From an uncultured Spartobacteria bacterium (GTDB lineage: Bacteria > Verrucomicrobiota > Verrucomicrobiia > Chthoniobacterales > Chthoniobacteraceae), in assembly GCA_903919125.1 (NCBI GenBank), contig CAIXGS010000012.1, positions 27,706-91,705 on the forward strand: a DNA stretch of 64,000 bases. Reading direction: 5' to 3'. Shown here one piece after another: positions 1,045 through 18,493 of this stretch (position 1 is the stretch's first letter; each line of letters begins with the position of its first letter). The notes under the pieces were generated by a model that saw nothing but the letters and a program-made list of their open reading frames with translations, had not been told where the DNA came from and did not search any database. The position numbers and the translations under genes were made by a program.

Positions 1045-2199
1045 TTAAGCTGCGAGGGATTGTGTTTGTCTCTGAGTAGCAATCTTCGCGATGGCGCTTT
1101 TAATGGTTCCGCATACCGTTTCCTCGCTCAAACCTTTTTCGACTGAGATCTCTTTCATGCTCATCTGGCGAGTGAACCCGTAACCGATGGTTTTCTTCAA
1201 AACTTCGATCTCCAACCAGTCCAATTGCCCCAAGTAGGGCTCGATGAAATCCACGTAATCGCCGTAATCGTTGAAAACTGCGTTGTGGTCTGGCAATGTC
1301 TCGCCCAGGGTCATTCCGTCTTCCTCTTCGCCGACAGGGGCGTCGATGGAGACTACGTCCCAGTGGTACCGCTTCAACTGCTCTGCCTCCTCAACCTCGA
1401 TATTCAAGGCTTGCGCCATCTCTTGGCTCGTGGGAACACGTCCCAACTCGAAGACCAACTCATTCTGAACCTGATCGAAGGCCCTCATTTTGCTCCACAC
1501 ATGACAGGGGATGCGTATTTCTTGGGCGTAGTTTTCGCAGGCGCGCGTGATCTCGCCTTTAATTGAGGGTACTGCGTAGGTCGAAAATTTATTTTTCAAG
1601 CTAGGCTTGAAGGCCTCAACCGCCTTTTGCAAACCGATGACTCCATATTGCATTAAGTCCTCGTTCTCAAATGCCTTTCCCCCGTGCTTACTCGCTACGC
1701 CAGCCACTAGGCGTAGATTACCTTTTACGATCACATTGCGAGCCTCGATATACCCGCGTTCCAAAACTCTTAACTCCGCAAAATAGGCTTCGCTGCTTTC
1801 CGCTACATCCCGAGGAATGCCGTCTTTAGCACGTTTTTGCTCCGCTTTCAAGGTGTCGATGCACTCCTGGTAGATCGCCTGTTTAGCACACAAGGCGTGC
1901 AACGCCACTGAACGAGCCGCAGAATTTGAAGCGTTGGCGTAGTTTTGCAACCGAGCCACCGTTGGACCGTTGGGTTCAAAATACTTTTTAGTATCGTTTT
2001 TTGTCCCCTCTTCTCCATTCACCGCCGACGTTGCGTGGGCGATAATCGTCTGGGCAACCTGAACGCTCTGGTGCAAATGCGAGCGCAACTTTTCTTTTGC
2101 GACTGCAAACGTGGCAAAAGCCGCCGTCTGTTGGGCTGCGTTCATCGCAGGAGGCAAATTTGAGTACAACGAATAGCGATTTTGGTGCATATTTCTCAT
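1045..2199 (-). CDS. RNA polymerase sigma factor, sigma-70 family, with an Ala-rich N-terminal extension of about 150 aa
   Basis: Region 2 motifs (GNLRLVAGVASKH, DLMQYGVIGLQKAVEAFKP...FSTYAVPSIKGEITRA...IRIP) and region 4 HTH (SMKEISVEKGLSEETVCGTIKSAIAKI) are readable in the translation. Confidence 0.8.
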   Translation of the reverse strand: MRNMHQNRYSLYSNLPPAMNAAQQTAAFATFAVAKEKLRSHLHQSVQVAQTIIAHATSAVNGEEGTKNDTKKYFEPNGPTVARLQNYANASNSAARSVALHALCAKQAIYQECIDTLKAEQKRAKDGIPRDVAESSEAYFAELRVLERGYIEARNVIVKGNLRLVAGVASKHGGKAFENEDLMQYGVIGLQKAVEAFKPSLKNKFSTYAVPSIKGEITRACENYAQEIRIPCHVWSKMRAFDQVQNELVFELGRVPTSQEMAQALNIEVEEAEQLKRYHWDVVSIDAPVGEEEDGMTLGETLPDHNAVFNDYGDYVDFIEPYLGQLDWLEIEVLKKTIGYGFTRQMSMKEISVEKGLSEETVCGTIKSAIAKIATQRQTQSLAA

Positions 2200-4094: not shown

Positions 4095-5723
4095 ATGAAA
4101 CAACGAATAAACAATCAGAAAGTCATCAACTGGCATGCTCCACGGAAAGTAGGAGCACTAAATGCATCTTATATTGCCAAGAGAACTCGAGGTGTGGAGG
4201 GTTTATCCATCAAACAGCGTGATGCAGCGGAGAATGGATATTTTTGTGTTTATTGTGACAGGTGGAGTTGCTACGACGGCGAAAACGTGATGCGGTGTAT
4301 CAGGTTAAGCGAAGCGGATTACGATATCATTGAATTCGCAGACGGCACGGAGGAGTTTGTGAATCGTATCGATAAAATATCTGAATTAAATTGGAAAAAT
4401 ATCGAACGAAAATTCGGCTTTTCAAATCCCATACTCTTTCCTCTGGAAATTATTGAGAACGCCAATGTCGCCCTTTTTGAGGGAGGAGCTGCTCCTAAAC
4501 GGATCCAGGAAGTGGATCTCGTAGGTCACTATCAGTGCTTGAAAACAGCTGCCCCACAGCATTCATGTACAGCGGAATTTGACCCTAGGGATGTGCTGCG
4601 CATTGAAAAGGTCTTGGGCTATGGTGCAGGCTCGAAATTAACAGGAGAGCGGTCATTTCTTGGTGAGAAATTCGATGCCACCTTTCTGGCATTATTTCTG
4701 AGATACAGCATCAGAAGTTTGTCCCATTTCAATGCTATTTCGGGCGACGCGCGGAAGGATTTTCAAAATCTGGCTGAGTATCTCTTTTGTGATTATCCCA
4801 TTCCCCAATGGTTGAAATCGGTGTGGGGAATCCCCAAGAGTACTTTTAAGGGGGATTTAAAACAGGCTATACAGTGGGCGCATTGGTTTATTTGTCTGGG
4901 ACAGGGGGGCAGTTTGAGAAAATTGTCCAAGCTCATGGGGGGAAGAGTATCGGGGAAGCTCGTACACTTCCTCTATGCGGCGCCCTCCCATTTGCGCCCT
5001 GAAATGGCCTGCGCCTGGGCTGAAGCCATGCGGATTTCGGGAAGTCGGCGCGTGGCAGACTGGATTTCTAAAAATCAGGGATACGCCATCGATCCCTCTT
5101 TGGTTCCAACAAGGAAGCACGACATGCGTTTTCGAAAATTCTGGCAGCAAACGGTAAAATGGTTCGCTAGATTTCAGGGTGAGCTTTCAAATGAGGTGGC
5201 GGCGGAATTGCTCGAATGGGGGAACGTTCGCTTCAGCGAGGATTCTAAGAAAAATATCCTCTTTTCATGGGCGGGGCGCACGCCTGCCAGCGCGCTGGGG
5301 GTGGCTCGCAGAGAACTGCCCCAATTCTTCAGAGGGTTGGGCGGGACGACGAATCTTCAATGGAGCCCTCTCGGAGTGAGTTGGAATTTGGAGACTACGG
5401 CTTTTGCGGGGGCAAAAACGGACGTTTGGACCTTCGTGGAGCTGACTCAGAGCAGCGCCTTGTGGGAGGAGGGCGTCGCAATGGGAAACTGTGTCGCGGG
5501 CTATGATAAGAAGTGCATGGTGGGCATTTCGGCGATTGTCTCGGTGAGGCTTAACGGGATGCGGGTGCTTACGGCTGAGCTGAACAGAAGAAGCAAGGCG
5601 GTTGTGCAGGTAAAGGGGCGTTTTAACAGGGAGCCCACGGAGGCGGAGTTAGCGGTAGTACAGCAGTGGCAGCAGGAGGCGGTGGTAGGGCGCAGGGGAG
5701 AGGTTTTTGCCCTGGCAGCATAG
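4095..5723 (+). CDS. hypothetical protein, possibly PcfJ-like (C-terminal MGNCV..Y motif)
   Basis: 542-aa ORF in a visibly lower-GC segment; the C-terminal EEGVAMGNCVAGYDKKC...VQVKGRFN is recalled from memory as resembling the PcfJ-like family (unverified). Confidence 0.5.
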   Translation: MKQRINNQKVINWHAPRKVGALNASYIAKRTRGVEGLSIKQRDAAENGYFCVYCDRWSCYDGENVMRCIRLSEADYDIIEFADGTEEFVNRIDKISELNWKNIERKFGFSNPILFPLEIIENANVALFEGGAAPKRIQEVDLVGHYQCLKTAAPQHSCTAEFDPRDVLRIEKVLGYGAGSKLTGERSFLGEKFDATFLALFLRYSIRSLSHFNAISGDARKDFQNLAEYLFCDYPIPQWLKSVWGIPKSTFKGDLKQAIQWAHWFICLGQGGSLRKLSKLMGGRVSGKLVHFLYAAPSHLRPEMACAWAEAMRISGSRRVADWISKNQGYAIDPSLVPTRKHDMRFRKFWQQTVKWFARFQGELSNEVAAELLEWGNVRFSEDSKKNILFSWAGRTPASALGVARRELPQFFRGLGGTTNLQWSPLGVSWNLETTAFAGAKTDVWTFVELTQSSALWEEGVAMGNCVAGYDKKCMVGISAIVSVRLNGMRVLTAELNRRSKAVVQVKGRFNREPTEAELAVVQQWQQEAVVGRRGEVFALAA

Positions 5724-5773
5724 GTCGGCGCGGACGTCTACGTCTGATGGCGGGAGAATTGCCGGAAGAGCGC

Positions 5774-6544
5774 TCACCGCCGTGGTTCGTCTGGAAAGGC
5801 GGCTTGCATTTCCATCTCATGCATGAGGCAGGCGAGTTCGTATCCGTATTCACTCCACTTTTCAGCCCCGAGTCCTTGAGTCCAACGACTAAGATTCGCA
5901 GTAGTCCCCAATTCGAAATCCTTATCTCTTCCCCACGCCATACATTCGGACTCCACATAACGCAACCAGACGGCACTGACGTCCTCGCGTTCCAGCATCG
6001 TAGTCACACCGTTCTTTTTGAAAAGCAGCCCATCATCCGCTGTACAAAAATCGACGTTATAAGCGGGGCTCTCAGGTGTTGCCTTAAAATGGAGACGTCT
6101 TGGAAGCATCCTTTTTAAGGGTTCCCAAAAGTCTTCTTGGCGTTTGGTCTCTAATTCTTTCAAGGCATGTTCTGCCAACATAATCAATGCCAATACTTTC
6201 CGAATCACAAACTCACCCGTTTTTCCCCAGCGATTGAGATCTTTGAAAAACTCCTTGAGTGTAATAGCGCTGTCCCCTCGCCGCTTCCACTTTTTGAATC
6301 GCTCCGAAAGACGTCGTAGATCGGCATTCGTAACCTCCATACACTCAGAAGTTACTGTGAATAATAAGTTATCCCCCTGACGCTTCACCGCATAGGTGGA
6401 GTCCTCAGGACTGTCATCGCTGAGATTGTGCCCAGCATAACCGTTGGCGAACATGATCATGACCCCGAGTACACGCTCGGGGTCTATCGAATCCTGGCAG
6501 TTGTCTTGAGTGGGGGGCGTATTGGTATCGCTCATGCCGCCCAT
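5774..6544 (-). CDS. hypothetical protein (256 aa)
   Basis: ORF downstream of and co-directional with the TIR-repeat gene; no recognisable domain. Confidence 0.4.
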   Translation of the reverse strand: MGGMSDTNTPPTQDNCQDSIDPERVLGVMIMFANGYAGHNLSDDSPEDSTYAVKRQGDNLLFTVTSECMEVTNADLRRLSERFKKWKRRGDSAITLKEFFKDLNRWGKTGEFVIRKVLALIMLAEHALKELETKRQEDFWEPLKRMLPRRLHFKATPESPAYNVDFCTADDGLLFKKNGVTTMLEREDVSAVWLRYVESECMAWGRDKDFELGTTANLSRWTQGLGAEKWSEYGYELACLMHEMEMQAAFPDEPRR

Positions 6545-6800
6545 TATAGCACTCGGCGTCTTAACTTAGCTCAAGCGGCCGCTGCTGTTGTCGGGCGTGT
6601 GTGAGACTGATGGTCGCAACCAGCCGCACGTCCACCGTATGAAACGCACGGGCGGGCGGATCGCCCAGTTTGTCGGCTTCAACGACGGGTACTGGGAAGG
6701 CGGCAATTACGAATGCATTCACGCTGAACCGTTTCTTTCCAAATTACTGCCCCTCATGGAAGACGGCGGCGACTATTTCACGGATCATTCCAAGCTTCTC

Positions 6801-9800
6801 TCACAACCCAGAAATATCATGGGGTAGAGTGAACTTCTCAATCAAGGTCACCCCGAGCGGGCCGGGTTTTAATGCGAATTTTAGAAGCGACGTTCCGCGC
6901 ATCACTTGCAGCTCAACTTCTGGGGCTGTAGTTGTTTTTTCTAGATCGGCAAACTGCTCTTGCGTGGTGATTTCAACGCCCGCGTAGCCACTGATTCTGT
7001 CGCCCTCAAGTAATCCAAACTGCGCGGCCTGACTTTCTCCCAAAATGCCAGCTACCACGAGAGCCGTGGGTTTTAGCAGCTCGCCGTCGACTCCAAGGTG
7101 CCACTCAATGCTGACATTTCCGCGCCCGTCGTATTCTTTGCGAAGCTCTGCGTAGCCGTCTTTATGTAAAGTGAGATTCCCGTCGACGCCGAAGTAGCTG
7201 GTAAGCGTGACATTGCCGTGGTCATCGAATTCTTGGCGAATCTCTGCATAGCCGTCCTTGAGCAAAGTGGGCTTGCCGTCAACTCCAAGGTACCCCTGAC
7301 GGATGACATTTCCGCGCTCGTCGTATTCTTGGCGGAGCTCTGCATAGCCGTCCTTGAGTAAAGTGGGCTTTCCGTCGACGCCAATGTACGACAGACAGAT
7401 GACATTACCGCGCTCGTCATATTCTTGGCGAATCTCTGCGTAGCCGTCTTTATGCAAAGAGGGCTTGCCGCCGACACCGAGATACCACCTGCGGGTAACA
7501 TTTCCGCGCCGGTCGTATTCATGGCGGATGTCTGCGTAGCCGTCCTTGTGTAAAGTAGGCCTGCCGTCGACGCCGAAGTAGCTGGTAAGTGTGACGTTTC
7601 CGCGCTCATCATATTTTAGGCGGAACTCGGCATAGCCGTCCTCGTGCAAAGTGGGCTTGCCGTCGACGCCAATGTAGCACCGGCGGGTAGCATTTCCGCG
7701 CTGGTCGTATTCCCGGCGAAACTCGGCATAGCCGTCCTTGAGCAAAGTGGGCTTGCCGTCGACGCCGAAGTAACTGGTGAGTGTGACGTTTCCGCGCTCA
7801 TCATATTTTAGACGGAACTCTGAAAAGCCGTTTTTGTGCAAAGTGGGTTTGCCGTCGACGCCAATGTACCACTCACGGGTAACATTTCCGCGCTGGTCGT
7901 ATTCTTGGCGGAACTCTGCGAAGCCGTCCTTGTGCAAAGTAGGCTTGCCGTCAACTCCACGGTAGCACCAGTAGACTGCGTTGTCTCGCTCATCGAATTC
8001 TTGGCGGACCTCTGCATAGCCGTTCTTGATCAAGGTGGGCTTGCCGTCGACGCCGAAGTAGCTGGTAAGTGTGACGTTTCCGCGCTCATCATATTTTAGG
8101 CGGAACTCTGCATAGCCGTCCTTGTGCAAAGTGGGCTTGCCGCCGACACCGAGGTACCACCTGCGGGTGGCATTTCCGCGCTCGTCGTATTCTTTACGGA
8201 TCTCTGCGTAGCCGTTCCTGTGCAAAGTAGGCTTGCCGTCGATACCAAGATAGCACTGACGGGTAACATTTCCGTACTCGTCGTATTCTTGGCGGAGCTC
8301 TACATAGCTGTTCTCGTGCAAGGCAGGATTGCTATCGACGCCCAGGTACCACCAATGGGTGACATTTCCGCGCTCATCGAATTCTTGGCGAATCTCTGCG
8401 AAGCCGTCCTTGTGCAAAGAAGGTTTACCATCGACGCCAAGGTAGAACCGACGGGTGACATTTCCGCGCTCATCGTATTCTGTGCAGAGCTCTGAGTGAG
8501 CATCCTTGTGTGAAGTAGGATTGCCCTCGACGTCAAAGTAGCACTGCCGAGTAACATTTCCGCGCTCATCGAATTCTTGGCGAAGCTCTGCGTAGCCGTC
8601 CTTGTGCAAAGTGGGCTTGCCGTCGACGCCAATGTACCACTCACGGGTAAGATTTCCGCGCTTGTCGTATTCTTGGCGAACGTCTGTGTAGCCGTACTTG
8701 TGCAAGGTGGGCTTGCCGTCGATGTCGAGGAAGCAGGTACGGGTGACATTTCCGCGCTCATCGAATTCTTGGCGAAGCTCTGCGAAACCATTTTTTAGGA
8801 AAGTGGGCTTGCCGTCGGCGCCAATGTAGCACGCACGGATGATATTTCCGCGCTCATCGTATTCTTGGCGGAACTCTGCATTTCCGTCTTTGTGCAAAGT
8901 GGGCTTGTTATCAACGCCGAGGTACCGCGTACGAGTAATATTACCGCGCGCATTGTATTCCAGGCGGAGCTCTGCGAAGCCGTCGGGATTTCTGATCGGT
9001 TCGCTCCGCAGATCCAAGTATCGCACTGCGGTCATTACACCGTTGGCGTTACGTACTCGATGTACCGATGCTACGCCATTTTTGCCGGCGATTTTCACCA
9101 GCGTCCGCTTTTTGAATTCAATGAAGTTTTCGGAAATCCTCAATCCATTCCCATCGTACGTGTAGGCAATGCCTCCCACTCCATTGGCATCCCTTGTCGT
9201 TTGATTGTAAGAGTTTTTACAATACATAACATGGTCAATCAGACCACTGGCGCCATAAGCGCGAAGATGACGGACGATTTCCGTACGAGCTGTGTAATCC
9301 TTTTGCTTACCAAAGCCTGAGTTTGTAAATGACGGGAGCGCACTCTCCACTCCCTCTTTGGCTGAGACGAAGTCGACGATTTCAAGACGTTCGCCGCTTA
9401 GACGCTGCGTGCTTAGTACCCGCGCTTTTTGATTTATTTTTCCGTTGGGAAGCAGCGCTTTTTCGTCCAGCAGGTCCAACCGTTCAAGCCGGGTCTCTTT
9501 TTCGCCAGCGTACGTACACTTCAGCGCTGTGAAGCCGAGGTAATCGGACTCCCCATTGTACACTGGTTTACCCGTTCCGTTGACATAGGCAACAAGCCGC
9601 AGGCGGTTTTTGCGGTAAATCATCTGGTAAGAGCCCGAGCGTCTGGCCGCCTCCTGGGCGGAGATATGGAAGACGCCCTCTGGCATCCCCCAACGCAGCG
9701 TGAAATCTTGAAAGTAAAACGATTTCTCACGCCAATAATAATCCCAAGCCCACCATCCGCCCGTCATAAGCGCCATGGCTAAGGTTACAATCAAAGAACC

Positions 9801-10403
9801 GAAGAAACGCTGGCGCCTGAGAGCCAGTCGCTTGTGTCGCTCATAGAGTTGATCAAAACGCAGCCCCAAAATGGCAGCCACCACCTTTAAGACAATGCGT
9901 TCTCGATCATACTCCGCCATGGATGCCCCGAGGATTTCATGCGAAAGACTAGGGGGATAAGTGTGTGCGGGCACCGCCAAGGCGGGATCAGTTTCACAAA
10001 TCACGGGCACAATGCAGTCCTCACGCCCAAGTTCGTAAAAATGCTTAATTTCGCGTGCAACCCATTCCGAGGCGGCGGACTTTCGGGAGCAAAGCACGAT
10101 AAGAAAACGGCTGTCATCAAGTTCGCGCCGCAAATGCCTAGTGAGACTCCCGGCGCTCAGGTCGGTCTTGTCTCTAAAAACGGGGCGAAGAGATCGCGGC
10201 AGGTGCCCCCCGGCTTCCTTCTGAATCGAAACGGGGAGCCGGTACGCCTCTAAAGCATGCTGTAGCCATTTGGCCGTGGATTCGTCGGCGTGGGAATAGC
10301 TAATAAAAGCGTGGTAAGTGAAGCGTTGCGAACTCATGGAGGTTCTTTTTTCGCGCTTAAAGACAAAGAAACATTTTTGAACAAAGCCAGCGTTGAGACC
10401 CAA
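6801..10403 (-). CDS. giant TIR-domain membrane protein: N-terminal TIR, one TM helix, about 20 tandem 32-aa YD-like repeats, C-terminal PDZ-like domain; likely true start ATG at 10337 (listed start is TTG)
   Basis: TIR signature FISYSHADESTAKW...FLIVLCSRKSAASEWVAREIKHF; TM FFGSLIVTLAMALMTGGWWAW; repeats of GYAEFRQEYDERGNVTRxxYxGVDGKPTLHKD; C-terminal VVAGILGESQAAQFGLLEGDRISGYAGVEI...VELQVMRG PDZ-like. Confidence 0.85.
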   Translation of the reverse strand: MGLNAGFVQKCFFVFKREKRTSMSSQRFTYHAFISYSHADESTAKWLQHALEAYRLPVSIQKEAGGHLPRSLRPVFRDKTDLSAGSLTRHLRRELDDSRFLIVLCSRKSAASEWVAREIKHFYELGREDCIVPVICETDPALAVPAHTYPPSLSHEILGASMAEYDRERIVLKVVAAILGLRFDQLYERHKRLALRRQRFFGSLIVTLAMALMTGGWWAWDYYWREKSFYFQDFTLRWGMPEGVFHISAQEAARRSGSYQMIYRKNRLRLVAYVNGTGKPVYNGESDYLGFTALKCTYAGEKETRLERLDLLDEKALLPNGKINQKARVLSTQRLSGERLEIVDFVSAKEGVESALPSFTNSGFGKQKDYTARTEIVRHLRAYGASGLIDHVMYCKNSYNQTTRDANGVGGIAYTYDGNGLRISENFIEFKKRTLVKIAGKNGVASVHRVRNANGVMTAVRYLDLRSEPIRNPDGFAELRLEYNARGNITRTRYLGVDNKPTLHKDGNAEFRQEYDERGNIIRACYIGADGKPTFLKNGFAELRQEFDERGNVTRTCFLDIDGKPTLHKYGYTDVRQEYDKRGNLTREWYIGVDGKPTLHKDGYAELRQEFDERGNVTRQCYFDVEGNPTSHKDAHSELCTEYDERGNVTRRFYLGVDGKPSLHKDGFAEIRQEFDERGNVTHWWYLGVDSNPALHENSYVELRQEYDEYGNVTRQCYLGIDGKPTLHRNGYAEIRKEYDERGNATRRWYLGVGGKPTLHKDGYAEFRLKYDERGNVTLTSYFGVDGKPTLIKNGYAEVRQEFDERDNAVYWCYRGVDGKPTLHKDGFAEFRQEYDQRGNVTREWYIGVDGKPTLHKNGFSEFRLKYDERGNVTLTSYFGVDGKPTLLKDGYAEFRREYDQRGNATRRCYIGVDGKPTLHEDGYAEFRLKYDERGNVTLTSYFGVDGRPTLHKDGYADIRHEYDRRGNVTRRWYLGVGGKPSLHKDGYAEIRQEYDERGNVICLSYIGVDGKPTLLKDGYAELRQEYDERGNVIRQGYLGVDGKPTLLKDGYAEIRQEFDDHGNVTLTSYFGVDGNLTLHKDGYAELRKEYDGRGNVSIEWHLGVDGELLKPTALVVAGILGESQAAQFGLLEGDRISGYAGVEITTQEQFADLEKTTTAPEVELQVMRGTSLLKFALKPGPLGVTLIEKFTLPHDISGL
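7073..8984 (-). repeat. in-frame 96-bp (32-codon) tandem repeat array, about 20 units, high nucleotide identity between units
   Basis: Periodic ORFs with the same 32-aa periodicity appear in all other frames on both strands across this interval (frame shadows of a DNA-level tandem array). Confidence 0.8.
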
Positions 10404-10478
10404 ACTCGGACTTAACCCCGGCCAGTACTAATCTCGGGCGTGTCTGAGCGTCGCCGATCTCGTTCTAGAGTTTGGGCA

Positions 10479-12602
10479 TCAATCGGCTTCCGTCGTCGAA
10501 AATTCAATTAACAGCGGATCGATTCGGAAGGGATTAGAAAGGGGGAACATAAAGTAAGTGCCACCGGCGCGCACCGGCATCCCAGTGACGATGTGTTCGA
10601 TGATGCCGTCGGAGGTCGTTGCCCTGATCACTCGGCGGTTCCACGAATCAATGGTGATGGTTTCCACTCGGATGATTTTTGGGTAAATGGGTTGTGATGT
10701 GGCCCAGTCCGTATCCCAGAACCGTAGAAGTTCGAGCGTTTGATCCAAAAATTCCGCCGCTTTTCCGCTGAGATCATTTTGGCTATTATCGCTGAGTCGG
10801 TCATGAGCGAATATATTCCTTAGATTTGTGATGCTGTCGAACCCCCGCGGGGCAAGACGTTTTGCCGTGAGTGGTGCGTCAAGGTATCCCCGCTTTTCCG
10901 GTGGCGCATTGTCGAGATCCTTGGCCAACCTTTCCAAAAGACCGAGAAGTTGCCCCAGAGAGAGAGAGCTAAGCTTCCGGCTTTTGACTTCAGGAAGCTG
11001 CAGGAAGTGCTTTTCCGGGCCGCATTTATAGACTTGCAAGCAAATGAATCGGAGAAGGTTTCGGATGCTTGACTCGAGATGACTGCTAGCCTCGATTACC
11101 AGTCCTGCGCGCTCGTTGTATCCGGAAATCGGAAGTTTTGAGCGAATCGCTGTTACATGCTTGTGTGCAAAGGAAATGCCCTCCAATGGTTCTGGGAGAG
11201 GAAACCCAAGCTCAGAAAGGATTAAGACCGCAAGCTCGTCGGTGCTTACCGTTATTTTGGGAGTAAGCTTGTACTTGTCTCGGAGGATTCGACGCAATTG
11301 AGTCGCTCCGAGGCGCCTCAGAATTTCCATTGGATCAAGACGCGCGCAGTATTCTTTGAGGCGGAACAGCCGTTCGCCTTTGTACTGAAGTTCGTCCAGG
11401 AGAAGTTCCAGCTCTTGAGCCTCGGCCTCGGGTAGGGCGCTTAGTAATGCCACGAGGTTGTCCACATGCTGCATTTCGTGCCTGTGCGTATGGTTGGCGG
11501 GTTCGTGAAGCGATCCTCCGATTTTAGGGGAGGCGGGACGACTTGCCGATGAACTGGCTATGGAGGGCCGAGGATTGTGCTCTTCATCTGCGGCTAGGGG
11601 GGCGTTGAGTCCTTGTGTGCGCGCTAATTCAGTCTGGGGATCGGGTTCCCCTATCTGTTTAATCACGAGAGGGATTTTACTGACTCCTCCTTGGACGGCC
11701 TTCGCAAAGTATTTTTGTGCTATGGTCAGGAGCGCCACCACTCCCTGATTAAGGGTCTCAATCAACTCCCCATCGACGGAAATTAGACCGTGGACGACTT
11801 GGTTTCGTGCAAAGATTGCCTGCTCTACGGAAGTATCCAGACCGAGTGGGATCTTTGTTCCTCTTTTAGTGCTCGCTTCGCTGAATTCATGCCAGATGGT
11901 TTTTAATCCCTTTTTCTCTGGAAATTCGATGTTAAACACCCTGGCGCACCCATGCATAATGTCCTCAATGCGCGTGGTGATTGTCCGTATGCGAGTTTGC
12001 TCGTCACAAGCGAAGTCTCCGGGGGAGGTAGCGCTAAAAACATCTATGTGTTTGAAGTTCTCCTCCAGTGTTGGACAGCCTTCCAACGTGGCTACCGTAA
12101 TTTGGATGCCGCTGAAACCCACGTGTGTTGCAAGCCGCGACACCGCCGTCACTATGGCGCTCATGGACATTTTGGCGGTTCCAGTCCCGACCAAGGGCAT
12201 CAATACACGAGGGGGCGCATCTGGGTGTTTTTGCCTGAGAGACAGGATGGCGTCCCCGAGATTGCTGATAAAAGTGTGGGCGTCTGCGATCGAAACACTA
12301 ATTCGGGTGTCGAGATCCAAGGTGATTGCATGAAGCACTGCTATGGCAGGAAGTGCGCCAGCCGCAGTTTCAACGGTGCTTCCCACTTGAATGGGAGTTT
12401 TTAGGGACTCACGGATCGATTGGTTGAGAGCAGCAACTCCTGCGGATTGCCAAATGTCTCTAGCGGAGCCCCCAGCATGGGACAGATAGTTGTCATCGGA
12501 GGAAATTACGGCAAGCCACGGCCCGTCGCTTTTCGCGATGGCGCCAATCTCTCCAACAAGCACCTTATGGCGTAGGGGGTACATTATATCGTTTTTGTCC
12601 AC
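10479..12602 (-). CDS. Macro-domain protein with C-terminal RNxxxH (HEPN-like) motif; listed start is GTG, alternative ATG at 12584
   Basis: N-terminal AVISSDDNYLSHAGGSARDIWQSAG ... GSTVETAAGALPAIAVLH matches the Macro/ADP-ribose-binding fold (compare [25 protein letters not shown]); C-terminal NLRNIFAHDRL gives an RNxxxH motif; no TM segments. Confidence 0.8.
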   Translation of the reverse strand: MDKNDIMYPLRHKVLVGEIGAIAKSDGPWLAVISSDDNYLSHAGGSARDIWQSAGVAALNQSIRESLKTPIQVGSTVETAAGALPAIAVLHAITLDLDTRISVSIADAHTFISNLGDAILSLRQKHPDAPPRVLMPLVGTGTAKMSMSAIVTAVSRLATHVGFSGIQITVATLEGCPTLEENFKHIDVFSATSPGDFACDEQTRIRTITTRIEDIMHGCARVFNIEFPEKKGLKTIWHEFSEASTKRGTKIPLGLDTSVEQAIFARNQVVHGLISVDGELIETLNQGVVALLTIAQKYFAKAVQGGVSKIPLVIKQIGEPDPQTELARTQGLNAPLAADEEHNPRPSIASSSASRPASPKIGGSLHEPANHTHRHEMQHVDNLVALLSALPEAEAQELELLLDELQYKGERLFRLKEYCARLDPMEILRRLGATQLRRILRDKYKLTPKITVSTDELAVLILSELGFPLPEPLEGISFAHKHVTAIRSKLPISGYNERAGLVIEASSHLESSIRNLLRFICLQVYKCGPEKHFLQLPEVKSRKLSSLSLGQLLGLLERLAKDLDNAPPEKRGYLDAPLTAKRLAPRGFDSITNLRNIFAHDRLSDNSQNDLSGKAAEFLDQTLELLRFWDTDWATSQPIYPKIIRVETITIDSWNRRVIRATTSDGIIEHIVTGMPVRAGGTYFMFPLSNPFRIDPLLIEFSTTEAD

Positions 12603-12705
12603 GTCCTGAGTCCTTTTAGGTCGAGTTATTTCGGAGATCGAATCTGCACAGTTGTGGATGACGCAGGGCTTTATTGCTGAAACTCTGTCCTAGGTGCGCC
12701 TCCAG

Positions 12706-12906
12706 CTAATGCTCATCTCGGAAAACTCTGCGAAAAGACCTCAGGACGGCACCTTTTCGCGTAGGCATCCCGATCAAATTCTTTGGGATTTGGTAACTCT
12801 CCAGCTTCCGATGAAACCGTGAGGCATCCTGCTTGTCCGCTTGGCTGTAGCTTGTGCATATCCAGTAGTTTCGGGATGAACGATTGTCTGTTTCCTGATG
12901 ACTCAT
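12706..12906 (-). pseudogene. truncated TIR-domain gene fragment (N-terminal about 55 aa of a TIR, then stop)
   Basis: Translation ICTSYSQADKQDASRFHRKLESYQIPKNL...RSFRRVFRDEH aligns with the N-terminus of the full TIR protein (FISYSHADESTAKWLQHALEAYRLPVS...RSLRPVFRDKT); homology does not continue in any frame after the stop. Confidence 0.5.
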
Positions 12907-13381
12907 GGGTGCTGATTATTGGCAAAAACGCTTTTCTTCTCTCGATCTTCGAGCTCTGAAAGGCAGGGATTTAAAAGTTTTTAAAGCGTCATAATTTCGC
13001 TTTTTGAGAACAAGTACCATTTTGCTTCACTCTTGCAGGGTAACGTTACAATGGGGTCGACTTTTGCCCAATCTCCTCAGGGCCGTCGAGCGAAATTAGA
13101 CCATTATGCGCCGGTTTAGCAGGCCGTTCACCAGTGCGGTATGCTCGGCTATGGCGGATAGCCAACGGGAAGCCGCAAGGGTGAAGTGACTTCCCCCGTC
13201 GTGCGCAGTTTACTTCAGAAAATTGCGGGTATTCGCGGAAATCCAAGGGACGCGCATTCATTTTGGGATAGGCGGGAGGTACCTCCCTTAGCCGAGGATT
13301 CTTTTTAGAAAAAGTCAGGCATCTCCGGAAAACGAAGAAAACACGCCTTTCATACCCGTAGAAGCAAAACACCCCAGAAGC

Positions 13382-13609
13382 ATGAACACACCAACCCAAG
13401 CACCAATCCCCAGGGAAATTGAGCAGTTTTTAGCCGATACAGTTTCCCAAGCGCAGCGTGCAGTAGACCAAGCCGTCGAGGGCTTCGAAGCCGAACAACA
13501 GCCCCGTCCATTCCAATTTGATTCGGTGGAGGAATGGCACGCGATTGATGCCGTCTTGGAGCGTTGGTTGCAGCCCAACGAGCGGCGCCGGCACTCCGAT
13601 GCCGCTTGA
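13382..13609 (+). CDS. small helical hypothetical protein (75 aa), paralog of the ORF at 25676..26026
   Basis: Shares a FLA..QA...EW..DA.L..WL pattern with the small ORF at about 25.8 kb. Confidence 0.45.
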   Translation: MNTPTQAPIPREIEQFLADTVSQAQRAVDQAVEGFEAEQQPRPFQFDSVEEWHAIDAVLERWLQPNERRRHSDAA

Positions 13610-13815
13610 TGTGCAACACTCAAGCTAATGCAAACTAAAACAAAAAATTTAAACCACATACCCATCCATCCCATGCCAAACCCAAGCGATTCCAGCTCCA
13701 GGCTGCCCCTTGGCCAAAACTCGTAACCTAAAAGATTGCCGTAAGGATTAGTACGAGCTGGAGGAACCCATTTACAACGCCCCCTCCGTTCTCGGATCGG
13801 GCGACTTGTAGCGCG

Positions 13816-15816
13816 TCAGTAGGGAAACGCTTTTTGGGGGTCAACGGTGAGGTCGCCTTGCGTACGGCGGGTCCATTCCTCCCAAAATAAAGGGGCAAAC
13901 GTGTCCGCAGGAATTTTAGATAGAACCTCGAGTTGCAGCTCGTGCGGGAAAAGCGGCGACCGGCCTGCCTGGGTGAAGAGTTCGTTGGCCTGCAGCAGGA
14001 TGCTGAGATAAATCACTTGGATCAAGGGGCCTTCGGCTTTGTTGAGAAGTTCTTCCGCCTTTTTGAAATCCGCCTCTGCTTCAGCAAACTTTCCAGAAGC
14101 GGCGAACAAAGTGCCTCGGTATTTCAGCGAGGTTGCAGTGAGCCAGTTATCGGATGTATTGCGGGGGGAGACTACTTCAAGAGAGGCGAAATTATCTTCG
14201 ACCCTCCCTTGCTGCTTCCATAACCGATAAGCAGCAAGCAATCGATGCCGGCTCAAAAAAGCTAGGCTGACCGGGTCTGCCGCAGCCAGCGCCTCTAGAT
14301 CGCTTCTGACTTGTTTTTCGACCTCCGCGATCTGATCCGGTTCAAAAAGTGCCGTCCACAATGCAGTGCGAACGGTCGACTTGGAGTAATGGTATCGATG
14401 CGAATCAACGGCTCCGCAATTCTGAATCAGTTGCAAAGCGATTTGGGCTGCTTCTTCCAAACAGGCTTTCGACTCCTGCTCGCACCCCGAACCCCTGAGC
14501 GCTTTGAAAAGAAGCACTTCACCACCCAGCGCCCCGATGGCTCCCAGCTTGTGCAAAAGGTAATCCTCTTCTGAACCAAAGGTCGCCGCTTCGATTTCGG
14601 CCACCAATTTTCTCCCCACCTGCTCCGCGTCCTCGAGCATCATGCGGTCCGAAAGGGAGACGACAAACTGATTGATCGCTTGAAAGCGGTCCAATGCGCT
14701 GTGCCTCCAGTTGGTGCCCAAAATTTGGCGGAAGTACGCATCCGCACGTGCGGCATGGCCGGAGTGATTGTCAATCGCAGCGAGAATGACAAGGGTCTTG
14801 AGGTAGGCGGGACGCTGCTTCTTGCCATTGGCATCGAGCCACTGCTGCCATTTTTCCGCACGACCCCTCGCCGTCTCGTAATCCACAGTCTTCCGTTCGA
14901 CTTGCGCTTCCAGGGAGGCGGCTTGCGCCAAGATTGAAGCCTCGCTCAGATGCACACCATGGTGTTCCAACGCCTCTTCCACGATCCCTCGCGCTTCGTT
15001 GAGCGAGGTTCCCCCAGAAAAAAATACGCCTCCCGAAACGCTTGGCGATGATCCGACTGTGAGCCAAAGCTGGACTCCGAGTTTTTCGGCGAGCTTTTGT
15101 TTAGCCCGCAGCCCTTCAACAGGTTTCAGACGTCCTTCGGCAATCGCGCCCGAGGCCAGCCAACTGAGCGCATCCACACCACGGTTCATCCAGTAAAAGG
15201 CGAGCCACACAGGCAGGGCAAAACTTCCTCCAACGAGCACATTCCCCGCGACAGGTTGGACACACGACAAAGTGATCCGCCACCCTTTGTTGCTGAGCGC
15301 TGCTGCGAGCCCCTCCCCGCAATCCTCCCACGATGGAACCCTCTGACAGGCTTCGTCCAAAATTACTATCCCATCTCGAGAACCGCTTTCCGATTTCAAC
15401 ATGAAAGGAACTGGAAATGCTTCCCCAGCGGCGTCCACCACAGGGATCAAACCGTGCGCCTGTTCAAAAGCTGATTTTCTTGCGTTAAACTTCTGCAGCG
15501 TGAGTTTGTCTGAATCGGCGAGAAGCGAGCACAGAGTCAGCACCGTGTGAAAGCTGTCGCGCTTGAAATCCGGTGCGAGGTGTTTCACGGCAATGGACAC
15601 GACCGGCCCTGCGTTCGACAAAGCATCGATAACGGATTTCGGCGTGTTCTTGCCATACAACCACAGTCGACAGAGCAATTCGCCCTCGACGGCAGCCTGC
15701 GCCTCAGGCGAAAGAGCATGGCCGCTCTGTAGCAGACTGACGAGGGCGTCGTCTGAAAAGAATCCGACATCTAAAAGGGAATCCCTCAATCGTTTAAATA
15801 AATCTCGAGGCGTCAT
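13816..15816 (-). CDS. large protein with Lon-protease-like (S16-like) domain and TPR-like helical C-terminus (paralog P1)
   Basis: VGGSFALPVWLAF...SWLASGAIAEGRLKPVEGLRAKQKLAEKLGVQLW resembles the Lon S16 core (DGPSAG...AMTGEITLRG.VLPIGGLKEK...G.K) with Ser and Lys retained; paralogous to 19022..21232. Confidence 0.7.
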   Translation of the reverse strand: MTPRDLFKRLRDSLLDVGFFSDDALVSLLQSGHALSPEAQAAVEGELLCRLWLYGKNTPKSVIDALSNAGPVVSIAVKHLAPDFKRDSFHTVLTLCSLLADSDKLTLQKFNARKSAFEQAHGLIPVVDAAGEAFPVPFMLKSESGSRDGIVILDEACQRVPSWEDCGEGLAAALSNKGWRITLSCVQPVAGNVLVGGSFALPVWLAFYWMNRGVDALSWLASGAIAEGRLKPVEGLRAKQKLAEKLGVQLWLTVGSSPSVSGGVFFSGGTSLNEARGIVEEALEHHGVHLSEASILAQAASLEAQVERKTVDYETARGRAEKWQQWLDANGKKQRPAYLKTLVILAAIDNHSGHAARADAYFRQILGTNWRHSALDRFQAINQFVVSLSDRMMLEDAEQVGRKLVAEIEAATFGSEEDYLLHKLGAIGALGGEVLLFKALRGSGCEQESKACLEEAAQIALQLIQNCGAVDSHRYHYSKSTVRTALWTALFEPDQIAEVEKQVRSDLEALAAADPVSLAFLSRHRLLAAYRLWKQQGRVEDNFASLEVVSPRNTSDNWLTATSLKYRGTLFAASGKFAEAEADFKKAEELLNKAEGPLIQVIYLSILLQANELFTQAGRSPLFPHELQLEVLSKIPADTFAPLFWEEWTRRTQGDLTVDPQKAFPY

Positions 15817-15827
15817 ACTGGGAGTCT

Positions 15828-16784
15828 TTATCGCGTCTCGGTCGTGACATTCAGCGCAGTTCCGTTGAGGACGAGTGAAAACGCGCCTCTGAAGTTTTGC
15901 GCTGGGACGGAACAGGAATGGCCTTTGAACACGCCTAAAAGGGAGCCATCGCCGTCTCGGATTTCACATCCGTCGAGAGCTGTGGACTCGTGCCCAGTTG
16001 CATCGAACACGTTGAACGTCGCGCTGGAACCCGCCTTCGCCCGCGCGTCGACATCAACCGACACGCCTAGTGATTCCACGATAAACGCCTGGTGGAAGCT
16101 GGGTGCCCCCTCGTCAGCGTACAAGCGCACCATCGCTGCGGCCCATTCATCGCCAAAATCGACTTTTATTACGTTTGGTTCGATACGGACCTCTGTTTCC
16201 CTGTCACCCACTGGCGCAATCCATCCCTCAAGCGGGCGTTGCAGATACGCAATTTCATTCGCTAGATTTTTGTGGAATGCGATTCGCGTGTCTAAATAGT
16301 CCAGCGGAGGAATTCCGCGCACGACCTCTTCCGGACATTCATCTCCCTTGCCTCCGAGCCAAGCGGAAAAGTCGCTCAGAATCTGTATTTCCTTCTCGGG
16401 CAGCAGAGTCACAAAACTGCTTAAAGCATCTGCCGGGACCGATAGCTCCAAGCCAACAGCGACGACGGGAGTGAATCCAAGCAGTTCGCGCAGGAGAATC
16501 GCGTCGGACGCGTCGGCCATCGTCGGATCGCTGAAAAGCGGAGCAACGGCAAAAAGTGTGCCTTCGGACAGTTCCATTCGGCGGAGTACCACAACCCAGT
16601 GGGACGCCTGTTCCTCTTCGGAAAGCGCGGAATCTGGGGTCGTTGTCCAAATTTCACCGGGGCTGGCGAAATTCGGTTCTCGGTCTTCTTGAAAGGATTG
16701 CAGCGTCGACTTTGATTCAAGAATAGGGCGCGTCTCGGCTAGTAGCCTCTCGATCGCCATTTCTTCAGAATTCGGAATATTCAT
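15828..16784 (-). CDS. hypothetical protein (318 aa), co-operonic with P1
   Basis: 12-bp spacing to the downstream P1 gene; no recognisable domain. Confidence 0.55.
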   Translation of the reverse strand: MNIPNSEEMAIERLLAETRPILESKSTLQSFQEDREPNFASPGEIWTTTPDSALSEEEQASHWVVVLRRMELSEGTLFAVAPLFSDPTMADASDAILLRELLGFTPVVAVGLELSVPADALSSFVTLLPEKEIQILSDFSAWLGGKGDECPEEVVRGIPPLDYLDTRIAFHKNLANEIAYLQRPLEGWIAPVGDRETEVRIEPNVIKVDFGDEWAAAMVRLYADEGAPSFHQAFIVESLGVSVDVDARAKAGSSATFNVFDATGHESTALDGCEIRDGDGSLLGVFKGHSCSVPAQNFRGAFSLVLNGTALNVTTETR

Positions 16785-16815
16785 AGGTCTGTAGTTTTAG
16801 GAAGAGCCCGAATTG

Positions 16816-18015
16816 CTAAATTTCCGAAATTTTGTGCTCAAGAGCGGTGTTCGACGGAGTTTGCTCTGAGTTATCGCCGCCGATGGAAGCTGAGGAGGTC
16901 AACGCTCCCCCGCAGTGATGGCGACAATGTTTCTCTGCTGCGTCCACAGCTTGTCGTCGGAGTGTTTCCTTCCAAAAGTTGAAGGCGATCCGCTCCTCCA
17001 GTGTCATGTGTAGTTTGTAGGACTCAAACTCCTCGCGCTTCAGGATATAATCATCCTCCTCAACATACTTGTAATCAACAAAGTCCGGAAGATAGGTGAC
17101 TAAAATTTTTGCGATTTTTTTTGTTTTCTCTCCAATCCTCCGAGCGTCGCCTAGTCCGGCGAGGATTACCGCGTCACCCAGTACGCGTTTCGGGTAAAAG
17201 TAATTGACATAAACGTCGCACAGTTTTTCCGCGCACAGCCGTTCTCCAATTAACTCACCTCTCTCGTAAATCTGTCCTTCCAGAATTTTTGTGACGTAGT
17301 CGGAAGGTCTTTCATCCTCAGAATTACCCACATCAAAGTCGACCTCGTCTTCGGAATCGCTTCCTTTTGAAATTCTGACAACCTTTAAGAGCGATGTTTT
17401 TATACACATCGCTTCGTGGATCAGCTTCATCTGAAGCGGGCAGTCCACATTGCCCAATAATTCCATCACGAACGCCTTCGCCTGAGTCGGCGCCACCAAT
17501 TTGCGTCCCTCATGAGCAGGCGGCGGGATATGCTCCATTTTCGCAAGCGCTTTCACAAAGCGGAGGTCGTTGCTCCTCTCACATGGCCGCTGATTCGCGG
17601 CAGACGCTGGGGACCACCACAATTCGTCGGCATGCTTTGGCCTCCCCACATTGCCCATGAAGACCTGTTTGCTTTTCTGCAGGTCCAGAAGCGCTTCTCG
17701 GCAGATATCCCATACTTCAGCCGATGCTGGATCGCTTAATTTCTTGAGTAACCGGCCCATCTGCATCCTAACCCCGGCCCTGTTGTTTAGCAGCACGTTG
17801 CGTGTACGCTGAATGTCCGCGAGGAAATCGTGGGCGAGATCCTCGCGCGTCAGTTTGGCGGCGCCTCCTTCCTTGCCACGCAGCACATGATCGGCGACGT
17901 CTTTTAACTCCCGGTAAAATTCGAGAAACGAAGCGTAGGAGGCATCCGACGGCGTGATGTCACTGTAATGACCGGCCACATAATCGTGAAAGAACTTGTT
18001 CCAGTTTAGAGCCAT
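16816..18015 (-). CDS. hypothetical protein (399 aa), first gene of the P1 operon
   Basis: 32-bp spacing to the next gene on the same strand; acidic central stretch; no recognisable domain. Confidence 0.55.
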   Translation of the reverse strand: MALNWNKFFHDYVAGHYSDITPSDASYASFLEFYRELKDVADHVLRGKEGGAAKLTREDLAHDFLADIQRTRNVLLNNRAGVRMQMGRLLKKLSDPASAEVWDICREALLDLQKSKQVFMGNVGRPKHADELWWSPASAANQRPCERSNDLRFVKALAKMEHIPPPAHEGRKLVAPTQAKAFVMELLGNVDCPLQMKLIHEAMCIKTSLLKVVRISKGSDSEDEVDFDVGNSEDERPSDYVTKILEGQIYERGELIGERLCAEKLCDVYVNYFYPKRVLGDAVILAGLGDARRIGEKTKKIAKILVTYLPDFVDYKYVEEDDYILKREEFESYKLHMTLEERIAFNFWKETLRRQAVDAAEKHCRHHCGGALTSSASIGGDNSEQTPSNTALEHKISEI

Positions 18016-18034
18016 AAAAGTCGCGGTAAAAAGC

Positions 18035-18493
18035 CTAGCGAAGCTTGTCTAGGAGGATACCTGCATCTTCCAAGAGTTCGGCGCGCAGTCGTTGGACGGA
18101 TTCCATGCCAACCCTCAAATGCGACATCGGAATACGGATCGCCATCGGAAGCAGGATCCAAGATAGCTTTCGGATTGCCGTGCCCGCCGTGTACTTAACA
18201 GGCAATGTTTCATGCGGCAGTTCCAAACAGTACCGCAGTGCTGCGGCGTCCGGTTGCTTGCTGGTGATGGGTGACATTGACACGGTGTTCCCGGAAAACC
18301 CTTCGGATCGCCGAGTCCGCACCATGGCAAAGTGCGGTGCTCCTCCTGCGAAACACGGGATCGGACCGTAATAAATGCATCCAAACTGAGGAGGAAACGC
18401 TTCGAAGCAAGAGGGGTTCATTCCTCGTGAATGGATGCGTTTATCCACATCATAATCTTCGCTATCAGATAGATCGCCCTGATAAATATGCAC
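18035..18493 (-). CDS. questionable ORF (152 aa)
   Basis: Overlapped by ORFs of similar length on both strands; no domain; possibly non-coding. Confidence 0.2.
   Translation of the reverse strand: MHIYQGDLSDSEDYDVDKRIHSRGMNPSCFEAFPPQFGCIYYGPIPCFAGGAPHFAMVRTRRSEGFSGNTVSMSPITSKQPDAAALRYCLELPHETLPVKYTAGTAIRKLSWILLPMAIRIPMSHLRVGMESVQRLRAELLEDAGILLDKLR

Follow-up and report, generated by a model that had tools for sequence, protein, structure and literature searches.

A superfamily of Macro proteins with two HEPN-like domains and its facultative TIR neighbours, viewed from a locus of an uncultured Spartobacteria bacterium

A 64,000-nucleotide (nt) stretch of contig CAIXGS010000012.1 from an uncultured Spartobacteria bacterium (here called the window) encodes, on its minus strand, a 707-amino-acid (aa) protein in which a Macro domain is fused to two HEPN-like domains and, directly downstream, a 1200-aa protein that joins a TIR domain to a transmembrane (TM) helix, tandem YD repeats and a PDZ domain. 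Comparative analysis of the first of these, the Macro-HEPN protein, defined a large unannotated superfamily with a predicted composition of one non-catalytic Macro domain, two HEPN-like domains with RNxxxH motifs and a beta domain that matches no known family. Because of this architecture, the Macro-HEPN protein is predicted to be an RNase gated by ADP-ribose (ADPR). TIR genes recur beside Macro-HEPN genes, and their association is real but facultative; a functional link from TIR to Macro-HEPN in the window locus is given a little short of an even chance.

The domains of the Macro-HEPN protein follow one another in the order Macro, HEPN-like, disordered linker, helical domain, HEPN-like and beta domain. 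An AlphaFold2 model built from a 113-sequence alignment reached a mean predicted local distance difference test (pLDDT) score of 83.7 and a predicted template-modelling (pTM) score of 0.78, with low confidence confined to two linkers, whereas a 5-sequence alignment of the close family gave a pLDDT of only 41. The hydropathy profile has a single peak of 1.55 (aa 77-97) within the Macro core, and no TM-like 19-residue hydrophobic window was found outside that core. A 701-aa version of the protein, starting at M7, is present in a public protein collection (entry P0001). The gene and its domains are as follows, the close clade being the set of relatives at 62-68% identity:

10479..12602, minus strand: gene for the soluble 707-aa Macro-HEPN protein (domain analysis, AlphaFold2 model)
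12045..12575, minus strand: Macro domain, aa 10-186 (profile and structure matches)
11688..12005, minus strand: middle four-helix domain, HEPN-like, aa 200-305 (helical model, pLDDT 74-89)
11193..11492, minus strand: conserved helical domain (HEMQHVDNL...KEYCARLDP...LGFP), aa 371-470 (near-invariance in the close clade)
10707..11183, minus strand: C-terminal HEPN-like domain, aa 474-632 (fold and motif)
10494..10685, minus strand: C-terminal beta domain, aa 640-703 (conservation, AlphaFold2)

Taken alone, the window protein scores below the Pfam Macro cut-off (17.4 versus 22 bits). A profile of 113 members, however, recovered the solved Macro domains of PARP14 (E = 3e-35), TTHA0132 (E = 1e-26) and YmdB (E = 6e-23), and the modelled domain resembles MacroD-type macrodomains with a template-modelling score of about 0.77 and intact phosphate-binding loops. 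Fold and loops are shared with YmdB, TTHA0132, human MacroD1/2 and the PARP14 macrodomain, whereas the window protein differs from all of these in lacking the catalytic Asn/Asp pair, in its SSDDNYLSH signature and in its C-terminal fusion of 500 aa. At the positions of YmdB N25 and D35, the residues mutated in the YmdB mechanism structures (both are Ala in PDB 5cb5), the window protein has D37 and A47, and the family consensus has Asp and Ser. Since the catalytic residues of MacroD are replaced while the family-specific SSDDNYLSH loop (aa 34-42) is invariant in a 21-sequence alignment, the Macro domain is best read as a probable binding rather than hydrolytic domain. Its modelled fold and intact loops suggest that it would be able to bind an ADPR-derived signal.

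Two hallmarks of HEPN domains are present: a four-helix up-down bundle and, opening its last helix, an Rx4-6H motif. The first motif, R266-N-Q-V-V-H271 (nt 11790-11807), is kept in most, not all, of the 113 family members surveyed; R266 is at least 90% conserved in alignment A3, and H271 is invariant in the close clade. Of the second motif, R595-N-I-F-A-H600 (nt 10803-10820), residues R595, N596 and H600 are at least 90% conserved in the 113 members. Active HEPN RNases are marked by the RNxxxH form (PMC3710099). Matches to HEPN profiles were found only below threshold, in 3 of 26 members (HEPN_RiboL-PSP, E = 0.05-0.07; HEPN, E = 0.056), and a comparison of the HEPN-domain profile with PDB sequences yielded noise, with no significant match.

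Two further parts of the chain, neither of which matched a known family in Pfam, are strongly conserved. The helical domain at aa 371-470 is modelled at pLDDT above 90 and is nearly invariant in the close clade. The beta domain at aa 640-703, with five beta strands at pLDDT above 94, is the best-conserved segment of the superfamily, and its conserved residues are P641, D652, R656, G680, Y683, N690, P691 and P696; candidate roles for it are RNA binding, oligomerisation or sensing.

With clusters defined at 50% identity, an exhaustive HMMER search at E ≤ 1e-3 recovered 484 cluster representatives, of which 99 scored E ≤ 1e-30; most representatives share the whole Macro-HEPN architecture. A family-alignment search of a 5.8-billion-protein index returned the same 5 proteins only. 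When genomes and metagenomes were searched, the close-family alignment found no related loci and the 21-sequence alignment found 3 + 49 loci; viral contigs yielded no Macro-HEPN relatives. In Pfam there is a model for the Macro part but none for the C-terminal half, and members are listed in databases as 'hypothetical protein' or 'O-acetyl-ADP-ribose deacetylase (regulator of RNase III)', a deacetylase name that is mis-transferred to members of this superfamily. The term 'Macro-HEPN' had no occurrence in the literature searched, and the fusion is not described in the HEPN survey PMC3710099 or in the conflict-system work PMC8195603. Independent of any question about TIR genes, a sizeable unannotated superfamily of about 480 clusters is thereby defined.

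In the window, the Macro-HEPN gene is the middle one of three confirmed co-directional open reading frames (ORFs) on the minus strand, which comprise 66 codons (12906..12706), 707 codons (12602..10479) and 1200 codons (10403..6801). The stop of the first lies 103 nt ahead of the GTG start of the Macro-HEPN gene, and the Macro-HEPN stop lies 75 nt ahead of the TTG start of the TIR gene, or 141 nt if counted to the ATG at M23 (10337), which is probably the true start of that gene. No terminator-like site was found between the Macro-HEPN gene and the 1200-aa TIR gene in a promoter and terminator scan that was otherwise uninformative. This arrangement agrees with an earlier note made from the letters of the same DNA, in which the gaps on one strand had been put at 76 bp and 100 bp. 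The note's domain calls (Macro, HEPN-like, TIR, TM and a repeat ectodomain) likewise held up under profile searches, hydropathy analysis, tandem-repeat finding with TRF and AlphaFold2 modelling, as did its interpretation of the shortest ORF as a decayed second TIR gene, which proved orthologous to a 545-aa TIR-TM gene in a metagenomic locus (L001). The features outside the Macro-HEPN gene are:

6801..10403, minus strand: gene for the 1200-aa TIR-TM-YD-repeat-PDZ protein (domain matches, hydropathy, repeat finding)
9978..10307, minus strand: TIR domain, predicted cytoplasmic, aa 33-142 (Pfam TIR_2, E = 6.7e-15; ThsB_TIR, E = 4.9e-10)
9750..9806, minus strand: single predicted TM helix, aa 200-218, FFGSLIVTLAMALMTGGWW (hydropathy 1.47)
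7079..8984, minus strand: about 20 tandem 96-bp (32-aa) YD/RHS-like repeats, predicted extracytoplasmic (TRF)
6864..7082, minus strand: C-terminal PDZ domain of the periplasmic RseP/S2P type (phmmer against PDB)
12706..12906, minus strand: remnant of a TIR-TM gene, a pseudogene of 66 codons (protein and DNA homology to the L001 TIR gene)

The TIR domain of the 1200-aa protein keeps its catalytic Glu, as E118 in 'SEWVAREI' aligns with Roq1 'STWCLEEL' and TcpB 'KQWPAREL'. A juxtamembrane helix, KVVAAILGLRFDQLYERHKR, precedes the TM helix and is common to other TIR-TM proteins (alignment A4). Between the TM helix and the YD repeats lies a region of about 330 aa without matches, and the repeat array itself, with a period of 96, 19.9 copies, 74% matches and no indels, runs in frame and matches the families TIGR01643 YD_repeat (E = 1e-12) and RHS_repeat (E = 3.5e-6). 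The PDZ domain was recognised through the S2P PDZ tandem of A. aeolicus (E = 3e-4) and, below threshold, Pfam PDZ_6 (E = 0.0033). Because no signal peptide stands ahead of the TIR domain, this domain would be expected inside the cell, with the repeats and the PDZ domain outside. Many ORFs overlapping positions 7000-9300 on both strands were rejected as genes, being by-products of the 96-bp in-frame tandem repeat.

The decay of the upstream TIR gene can be followed by comparison with L001, where the 545-aa TIR-TM gene is full-length and directly upstream of the Macro-HEPN orthologue. The 66-aa remnant is 62% identical to the N-terminus of the L001 protein over 65 aa (E = 9e-28), and at the DNA level window positions 12908-12712 match L001 positions 202-398 at 75%. 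Homology to the intact orthologue extends a few codons beyond the remnant's stop, to about 12694, and resumes only inside the Macro gene, indicating that about 1.4-1.5 kb of the upstream TIR gene was deleted in the window. Since both DNA and protein show this orthology, a chance origin of the TIR-like 66-aa ORF was rejected. The N-terminus of the intact 1200-aa protein is 38% identical to the remnant, and alignment A4 places the two as old paralogues of one TIR-TM subfamily, not as products of a recent duplication.

Genomic context was available for four loci of the close clade (L001, the window, L002 and L003). A TIR gene flanks Macro-HEPN in three of the four, and each of those three has exactly one intact TIR: in L001 a TIR-TM gene upstream; in the window, where the upstream TIR-TM gene is decayed, a different TIR-TM gene downstream; and in L003, which has no upstream TIR, a TIR-DnaJ_C-2TM gene downstream. 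For the wider family, 20 distinct loci with a full-length Macro-HEPN gene were assembled and searched for TIR domains by phmmer with 50 seeds, including the ThsB domains from Table S1 of the Yirmiya preprint, and a TIR was detected within two genes in 4 of the 20. Further support comes from TIR genes beside the distant family members L017, L053 and L063. In L017, whose effector is 28% identical to that of the window, a TIR-TM-WD40 gene is accompanied by a second, soluble TIR; in L063 a TIR of the same soluble subfamily lies five genes from Macro-HEPN; and in L053 a strong TIR (E = 3.5e-33) ends 1 bp before a partial Macro ORF of the same variant, a junction that suggests co-translation. Among the genes of these loci, TIRs account for 4 of 52 within two positions of Macro-HEPN and for 1 of 114 at greater distance (Fisher p = 0.03), the one being the second TIR of L017, at position +3.

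These observations can be accommodated in a mechanism in which the 707-aa protein would be a ligand-gated RNase effector. Its N-terminal Macro domain would sense a small molecule containing ADP-ribose, and ligand binding would switch on a HEPN RNase formed either by an intramolecular pair of the RNxxxH domains or by a dimer, with RNase activity leading to growth arrest or abortive infection. In type II Thoeris, as set out in a preprint on the expanded Thoeris repertoire (bioRxiv 10.64898/2025.12.03.692087), a ThsB TIR protein is paired with a Macro-TM effector, now ThsC, that binds His-ADPR; by analogy, the ligand in the window would most likely be made from NAD+ by the neighbouring TIR protein. 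A single TM helix tethers the TIR domain to the predicted periplasmic YD-repeat/PDZ region, through which events at the envelope could be signalled to it. The upstream TIR-TM gene, intact in L001, may have been the older partner, which decayed in the window and left the downstream paralogue as the sole intact TIR. Ligand binding by the Macro domain, RNase activity, signalling from TIR to Macro and any anti-phage role are all predictions of this scheme, while the identities of the domains, the elements of topology, the decayed state of the upstream gene and a recurrent, facultative proximity of TIR genes are observed.

Should the link hold, TIR/ADPR immune signalling would gain an output by RNase and a Macro receptor from another lineage, and the 1200-aa protein would be the first signalling TIR wired to a periplasmic sensor domain, as in animal Toll-like receptors. 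An extended form of the scheme is unlikely, namely that TIR-TM-ectodomain proteins are trans-envelope receptors of Toll-like-receptor topology (with YD/PDZ here and WD40 or other ectodomains in relatives) that sense a phage or envelope event, and that the ADPR-derived messenger of the TIR is read by the dual-HEPN Macro RNase, the whole constituting a new Thoeris type.

Several results weigh against a dedicated partnership of TIR and Macro-HEPN. The HEPN assignment draws on modelled fold and motif without a significant sequence-profile match, and no PADLOC model matches the Macro-HEPN protein, only the TIR domain being recognised. In the close clade, L002 has no TIR in 2.8 kb upstream, and its next downstream ORF (0.5 kb covered) is convergent. 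Across the family, 15-16 of the 20 distinct loci have no TIR nearby, and the neighbours in TIR-less loci are instead a STAND NTPase, a Lon-like five-gene operon, an M48 peptidase, a PLD-helicase-DUF3427 protein, SbcCD, FBPase and unmatched proteins. L014 and L017 are orthologous, with effectors 64.5% identical and a divergent HEPN_RiboL-PSP neighbour 83.5% identical; only L017 has TIR genes, while the Macro-HEPN gene of L014 is intact. The statistics on TIR genes near Macro-HEPN are drawn from few, partly related loci. The TIR partners next to Macro-HEPN fall into three or more unrelated architectures, more variety than is usual for a cognate pair of signal and receptor. Finally, no Macro-HEPN gene accompanies the closest relative of the window TIR domain, at 74% identity, or two further TIR-TM relatives.

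Much of this would be expected if Macro-HEPN were a self-contained effector or abortive-infection (Abi)-type protein without a dedicated TIR, the TIR genes being co-resident cargo of conflict or defence islands and the Macro ligand coming from a phage ADP-ribosyltransferase (ART), from NAD+ breakdown or from ADP-ribosylated RNA or protein. Such an explanation is possible, if somewhat doubtful. The preponderance of TIR-less loci and the survival of the L014 gene without the TIRs of its orthologue are in its favour, as is the variable island cargo among the neighbours (STAND NTPases in the window and L005, HEPN_RiboL-PSP, PLD-helicase-DUF3427 and PcfJ-like proteins); moreover, EAD11 or trypsin-like partners accompany the short Macro proteins that have this loop, as in PMC7159879 and PMC8195603. 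What it leaves unexplained is that a TIR, rare in genomes, lies within two genes in four independent loci, with a fifth case at a partial Macro gene and a sixth five genes off, that these nearby TIRs belong to three different TIR subfamilies, that one intact TIR is kept in the close clade, and that the TIR-to-Macro junction of L053 spans 1 bp.

It is improbable that the TIR-TM-YD-PDZ protein acts on its own as a sensor of envelope stress or contact that kills by NAD+ depletion, with Macro-HEPN either unrelated or a brake that sequesters the TIR product. TIR-TM relatives do stand alone with WD40, TPR or ATPase partners, many bacterial TIRs are NAD+-depleting effectors according to the Thoeris preprint (bioRxiv 10.64898/2025.12.03.692087), and the Macro domain lacks hydrolase residues and so could only bind its ligand. 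A sponge, however, needs neither two conserved RNxxxH domains nor a 330-aa invariant C-terminal module, and the Macro-HEPN gene survives where TIR is absent. Least probable is a Macro domain that is catalytic through non-canonical residues and removes ADP-ribose from a macromolecule (DarG-like, or on RNA or DNA), as an antitoxin-like or repair module on an RNA-binding HEPN scaffold: members annotated as O-acetyl-ADP-ribose deacetylase and the acidic and His residues of the SSDDNYLSH loop, which could catalyse, speak for it, but other residues stand in for YmdB N25 and D35, none of the 20 loci showed a DarT-like or ART partner, and the RNxxxH signature of active HEPN RNases (PMC3710099) is conserved.

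Set against known systems, the proposed TIR-linked, Macro-gated RNase comes closest to Thoeris. As in Thoeris generally, a TIR with its catalytic Glu stands beside the gene of a putative effector with a Macro fold in the window, on the same strand and at a gap of 75-141 nt. How far the pairing is conserved varies with the group examined: TIR and effector occur together in three of four close relatives and in 4-5 of 20 distinct loci, with L017 and L014 differing. The SIR2-SLOG effector of type I is missing, as no SIR2 or SLOG domain was detected by Pfam, NCBIfam or PADLOC in the seven proteins encoded at 4095-16784, or in the outer neighbours. In contrast to type II, the effector of the window carries two HEPN-like domains and a beta domain behind its Macro domain in place of TM helices, PADLOC gave it no ThsA match, its TIR is a 1200-aa membrane protein and not the small soluble ThsB, and TIR pairing is facultative across the Macro-HEPN family. 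Thoeris has been expanded to types I-XI plus 29 putative types, with 'RNases' among the predicted effectors, according to the portion of the preprint used here (bioRxiv 10.64898/2025.12.03.692087). That portion, which takes in only part of the tables of the 29 types, names no HEPN effector and no Macro effector beyond type II, and a listing elsewhere in those tables is possible. As a reasonable hypothesis, the window locus may be regarded as a Thoeris-like variant with a Macro-gated dual-HEPN effector, not as an established two-gene system.

The earlier note had already remarked on the missing SIR2/SLOG ThsA and on the Macro protein's lack of TM helices, and both remarks are confirmed by Pfam, NCBIfam, PADLOC and hydropathy. 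Its Thoeris-like logic survives as a hypothesis for this locus, weakened by the facultative pairing and by PADLOC's recognition of the TIR domain only. The refuting condition that it set, a pair that never co-occurs outside this genome, does not hold for TIR genes in general, which flank Macro-HEPN in L001, L003 and L017, lie five genes off in L063 and precede a partial Macro gene in L053. A TIR within two genes is seen in only 4 of 20 full-length loci, however, and the pairing does not extend to this particular TIR.

Csm6 and Csx1 of type III CRISPR systems combine an N-terminal nucleotide sensor (CARF) with a C-terminal Rx4-6H HEPN RNase. Macro-HEPN resembles these CARF-HEPN proteins in its sensor-plus-HEPN logic (HEPN motif definition as in PMC3710099), and the predicted ADP-ribose-gated RNase would extend their design to ADP-ribose chemistry. 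It differs in sensing through Macro (ADP-ribose chemistry) and not CARF (cyclic oligoadenylate), in having two HEPN-like domains per chain and in its lack of a CRISPR context, and no sequence similarity was detected. The toxins of HEPN-MNT pairs (SO_3166, 5yep; 8xdj; 7ae2) are stand-alone proteins of about 130 aa controlled by an MNT nucleotidyltransferase, whereas the HEPN-like domains of the window are embedded in a 707-aa multidomain protein without an MNT partner. Kaur, Burroughs, Iyer and Aravind (PMC7159879, PMC8195603) described nucleoside triphosphate (NTP)-dependent conflict systems in multicellular bacteria, in which neighbouring genes, close to those for STAND NTPases and TPR proteins, carry Macro, TIR, HEPN, trypsin and EAD domains in shuffled combinations. 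The present loci are similar in that the window has an NPHP3_N STAND protein and a TPR protein, the Macro partner in L025 is EAD11 and a STAND NTPase is next door in L005; they are dissimilar in that scans of the three window genes brought up neither an EAD nor a Death-like adaptor domain.

Several neighbours of Macro-HEPN genes in other loci merit mention. The HEPN_RiboL-PSP protein divergent from Macro-HEPN in L017 (109-933, minus strand) and L014 (9040-9945, minus strand) scores above the Pfam cut-off (E = 2.8e-8), and in L014 a gene convergent after Macro-HEPN (11918-13612, minus strand) has a weak Card1-like endonuclease match below the cut-off (E = 9e-4). The soluble TIRs of L017 (6654-8291) and L063 form one subfamily with the pattern FISYRRD...DRC..DY.R.E. 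TIR and M48 peptidase genes recur together, being adjacent in L056 (1842-3344) and in the same cluster as Macro-HEPN in L063 (2465-7269). Directly after one Macro-HEPN lineage stands a five-gene operon (L008 2614-8335, L011, L051 12169-17952) encoding proteins of 360, 234, 357, 541 and 420-440 aa, the fourth with a Lon_C protease domain. In L061 (196-2550), a 784-aa protein without a Pfam match overlaps by 4 bp the start of the Macro-HEPN gene for P0008, which is 40% identical to the window protein, suggesting a different dedicated partner there.

The same Macro variant (Pfam Macro, E about 1e-20) is also found in a second class of proteins, about 350 aa long, from L047 (9072-10999), L037, L038, L039, L046, L025 (9354-10972), L031 and L034. 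Their genes are translationally coupled to those of a trypsin-like peptidase (283 aa), an EAD11 protein (187 aa) or small unmatched proteins, and these pairs look like separate, uncharacterised two-gene modules.

Elsewhere in the window, four co-directional genes just upstream of the TIR remnant (13816-18493, minus strand) encode a 666-aa TPR-like protein and proteins of 318, 399 and 152 aa, for which Pfam, NCBIfam and PADLOC gave no match beyond weak TPR hits (NCBIfam for the 666-, 318- and 399-aa proteins). A gene for a 736-aa unmatched protein (19022-21232, plus strand) overlaps that for a 1122-aa STAND NTPase (21189-24557, plus strand; NPHP3_N, E = 1.7e-7); at a distance of 8.6 kb from the TIR/Macro-HEPN module, this pair may constitute an NLR/Avs-like system. 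In L005, likewise, a STAND NTPase follows directly after the Macro-HEPN gene. A 384-aa sigma-70-like protein (1045-2199, minus strand; Sigma70_r2/r3) matches PADLOC MzaA over its sigma part (E = 6e-24) and may belong to an Mza-like defence system or merely share sigma domains with it. At 4095-5723 (plus strand) lies a gene for a PcfJ-like protein (E = 7e-10), of a family known from conjugative elements, which hints at mobile-element cargo. Together, the PcfJ-like, TPR, NPHP3_N STAND and sigma-like MzaA-matching proteins are compatible with a conflict island.

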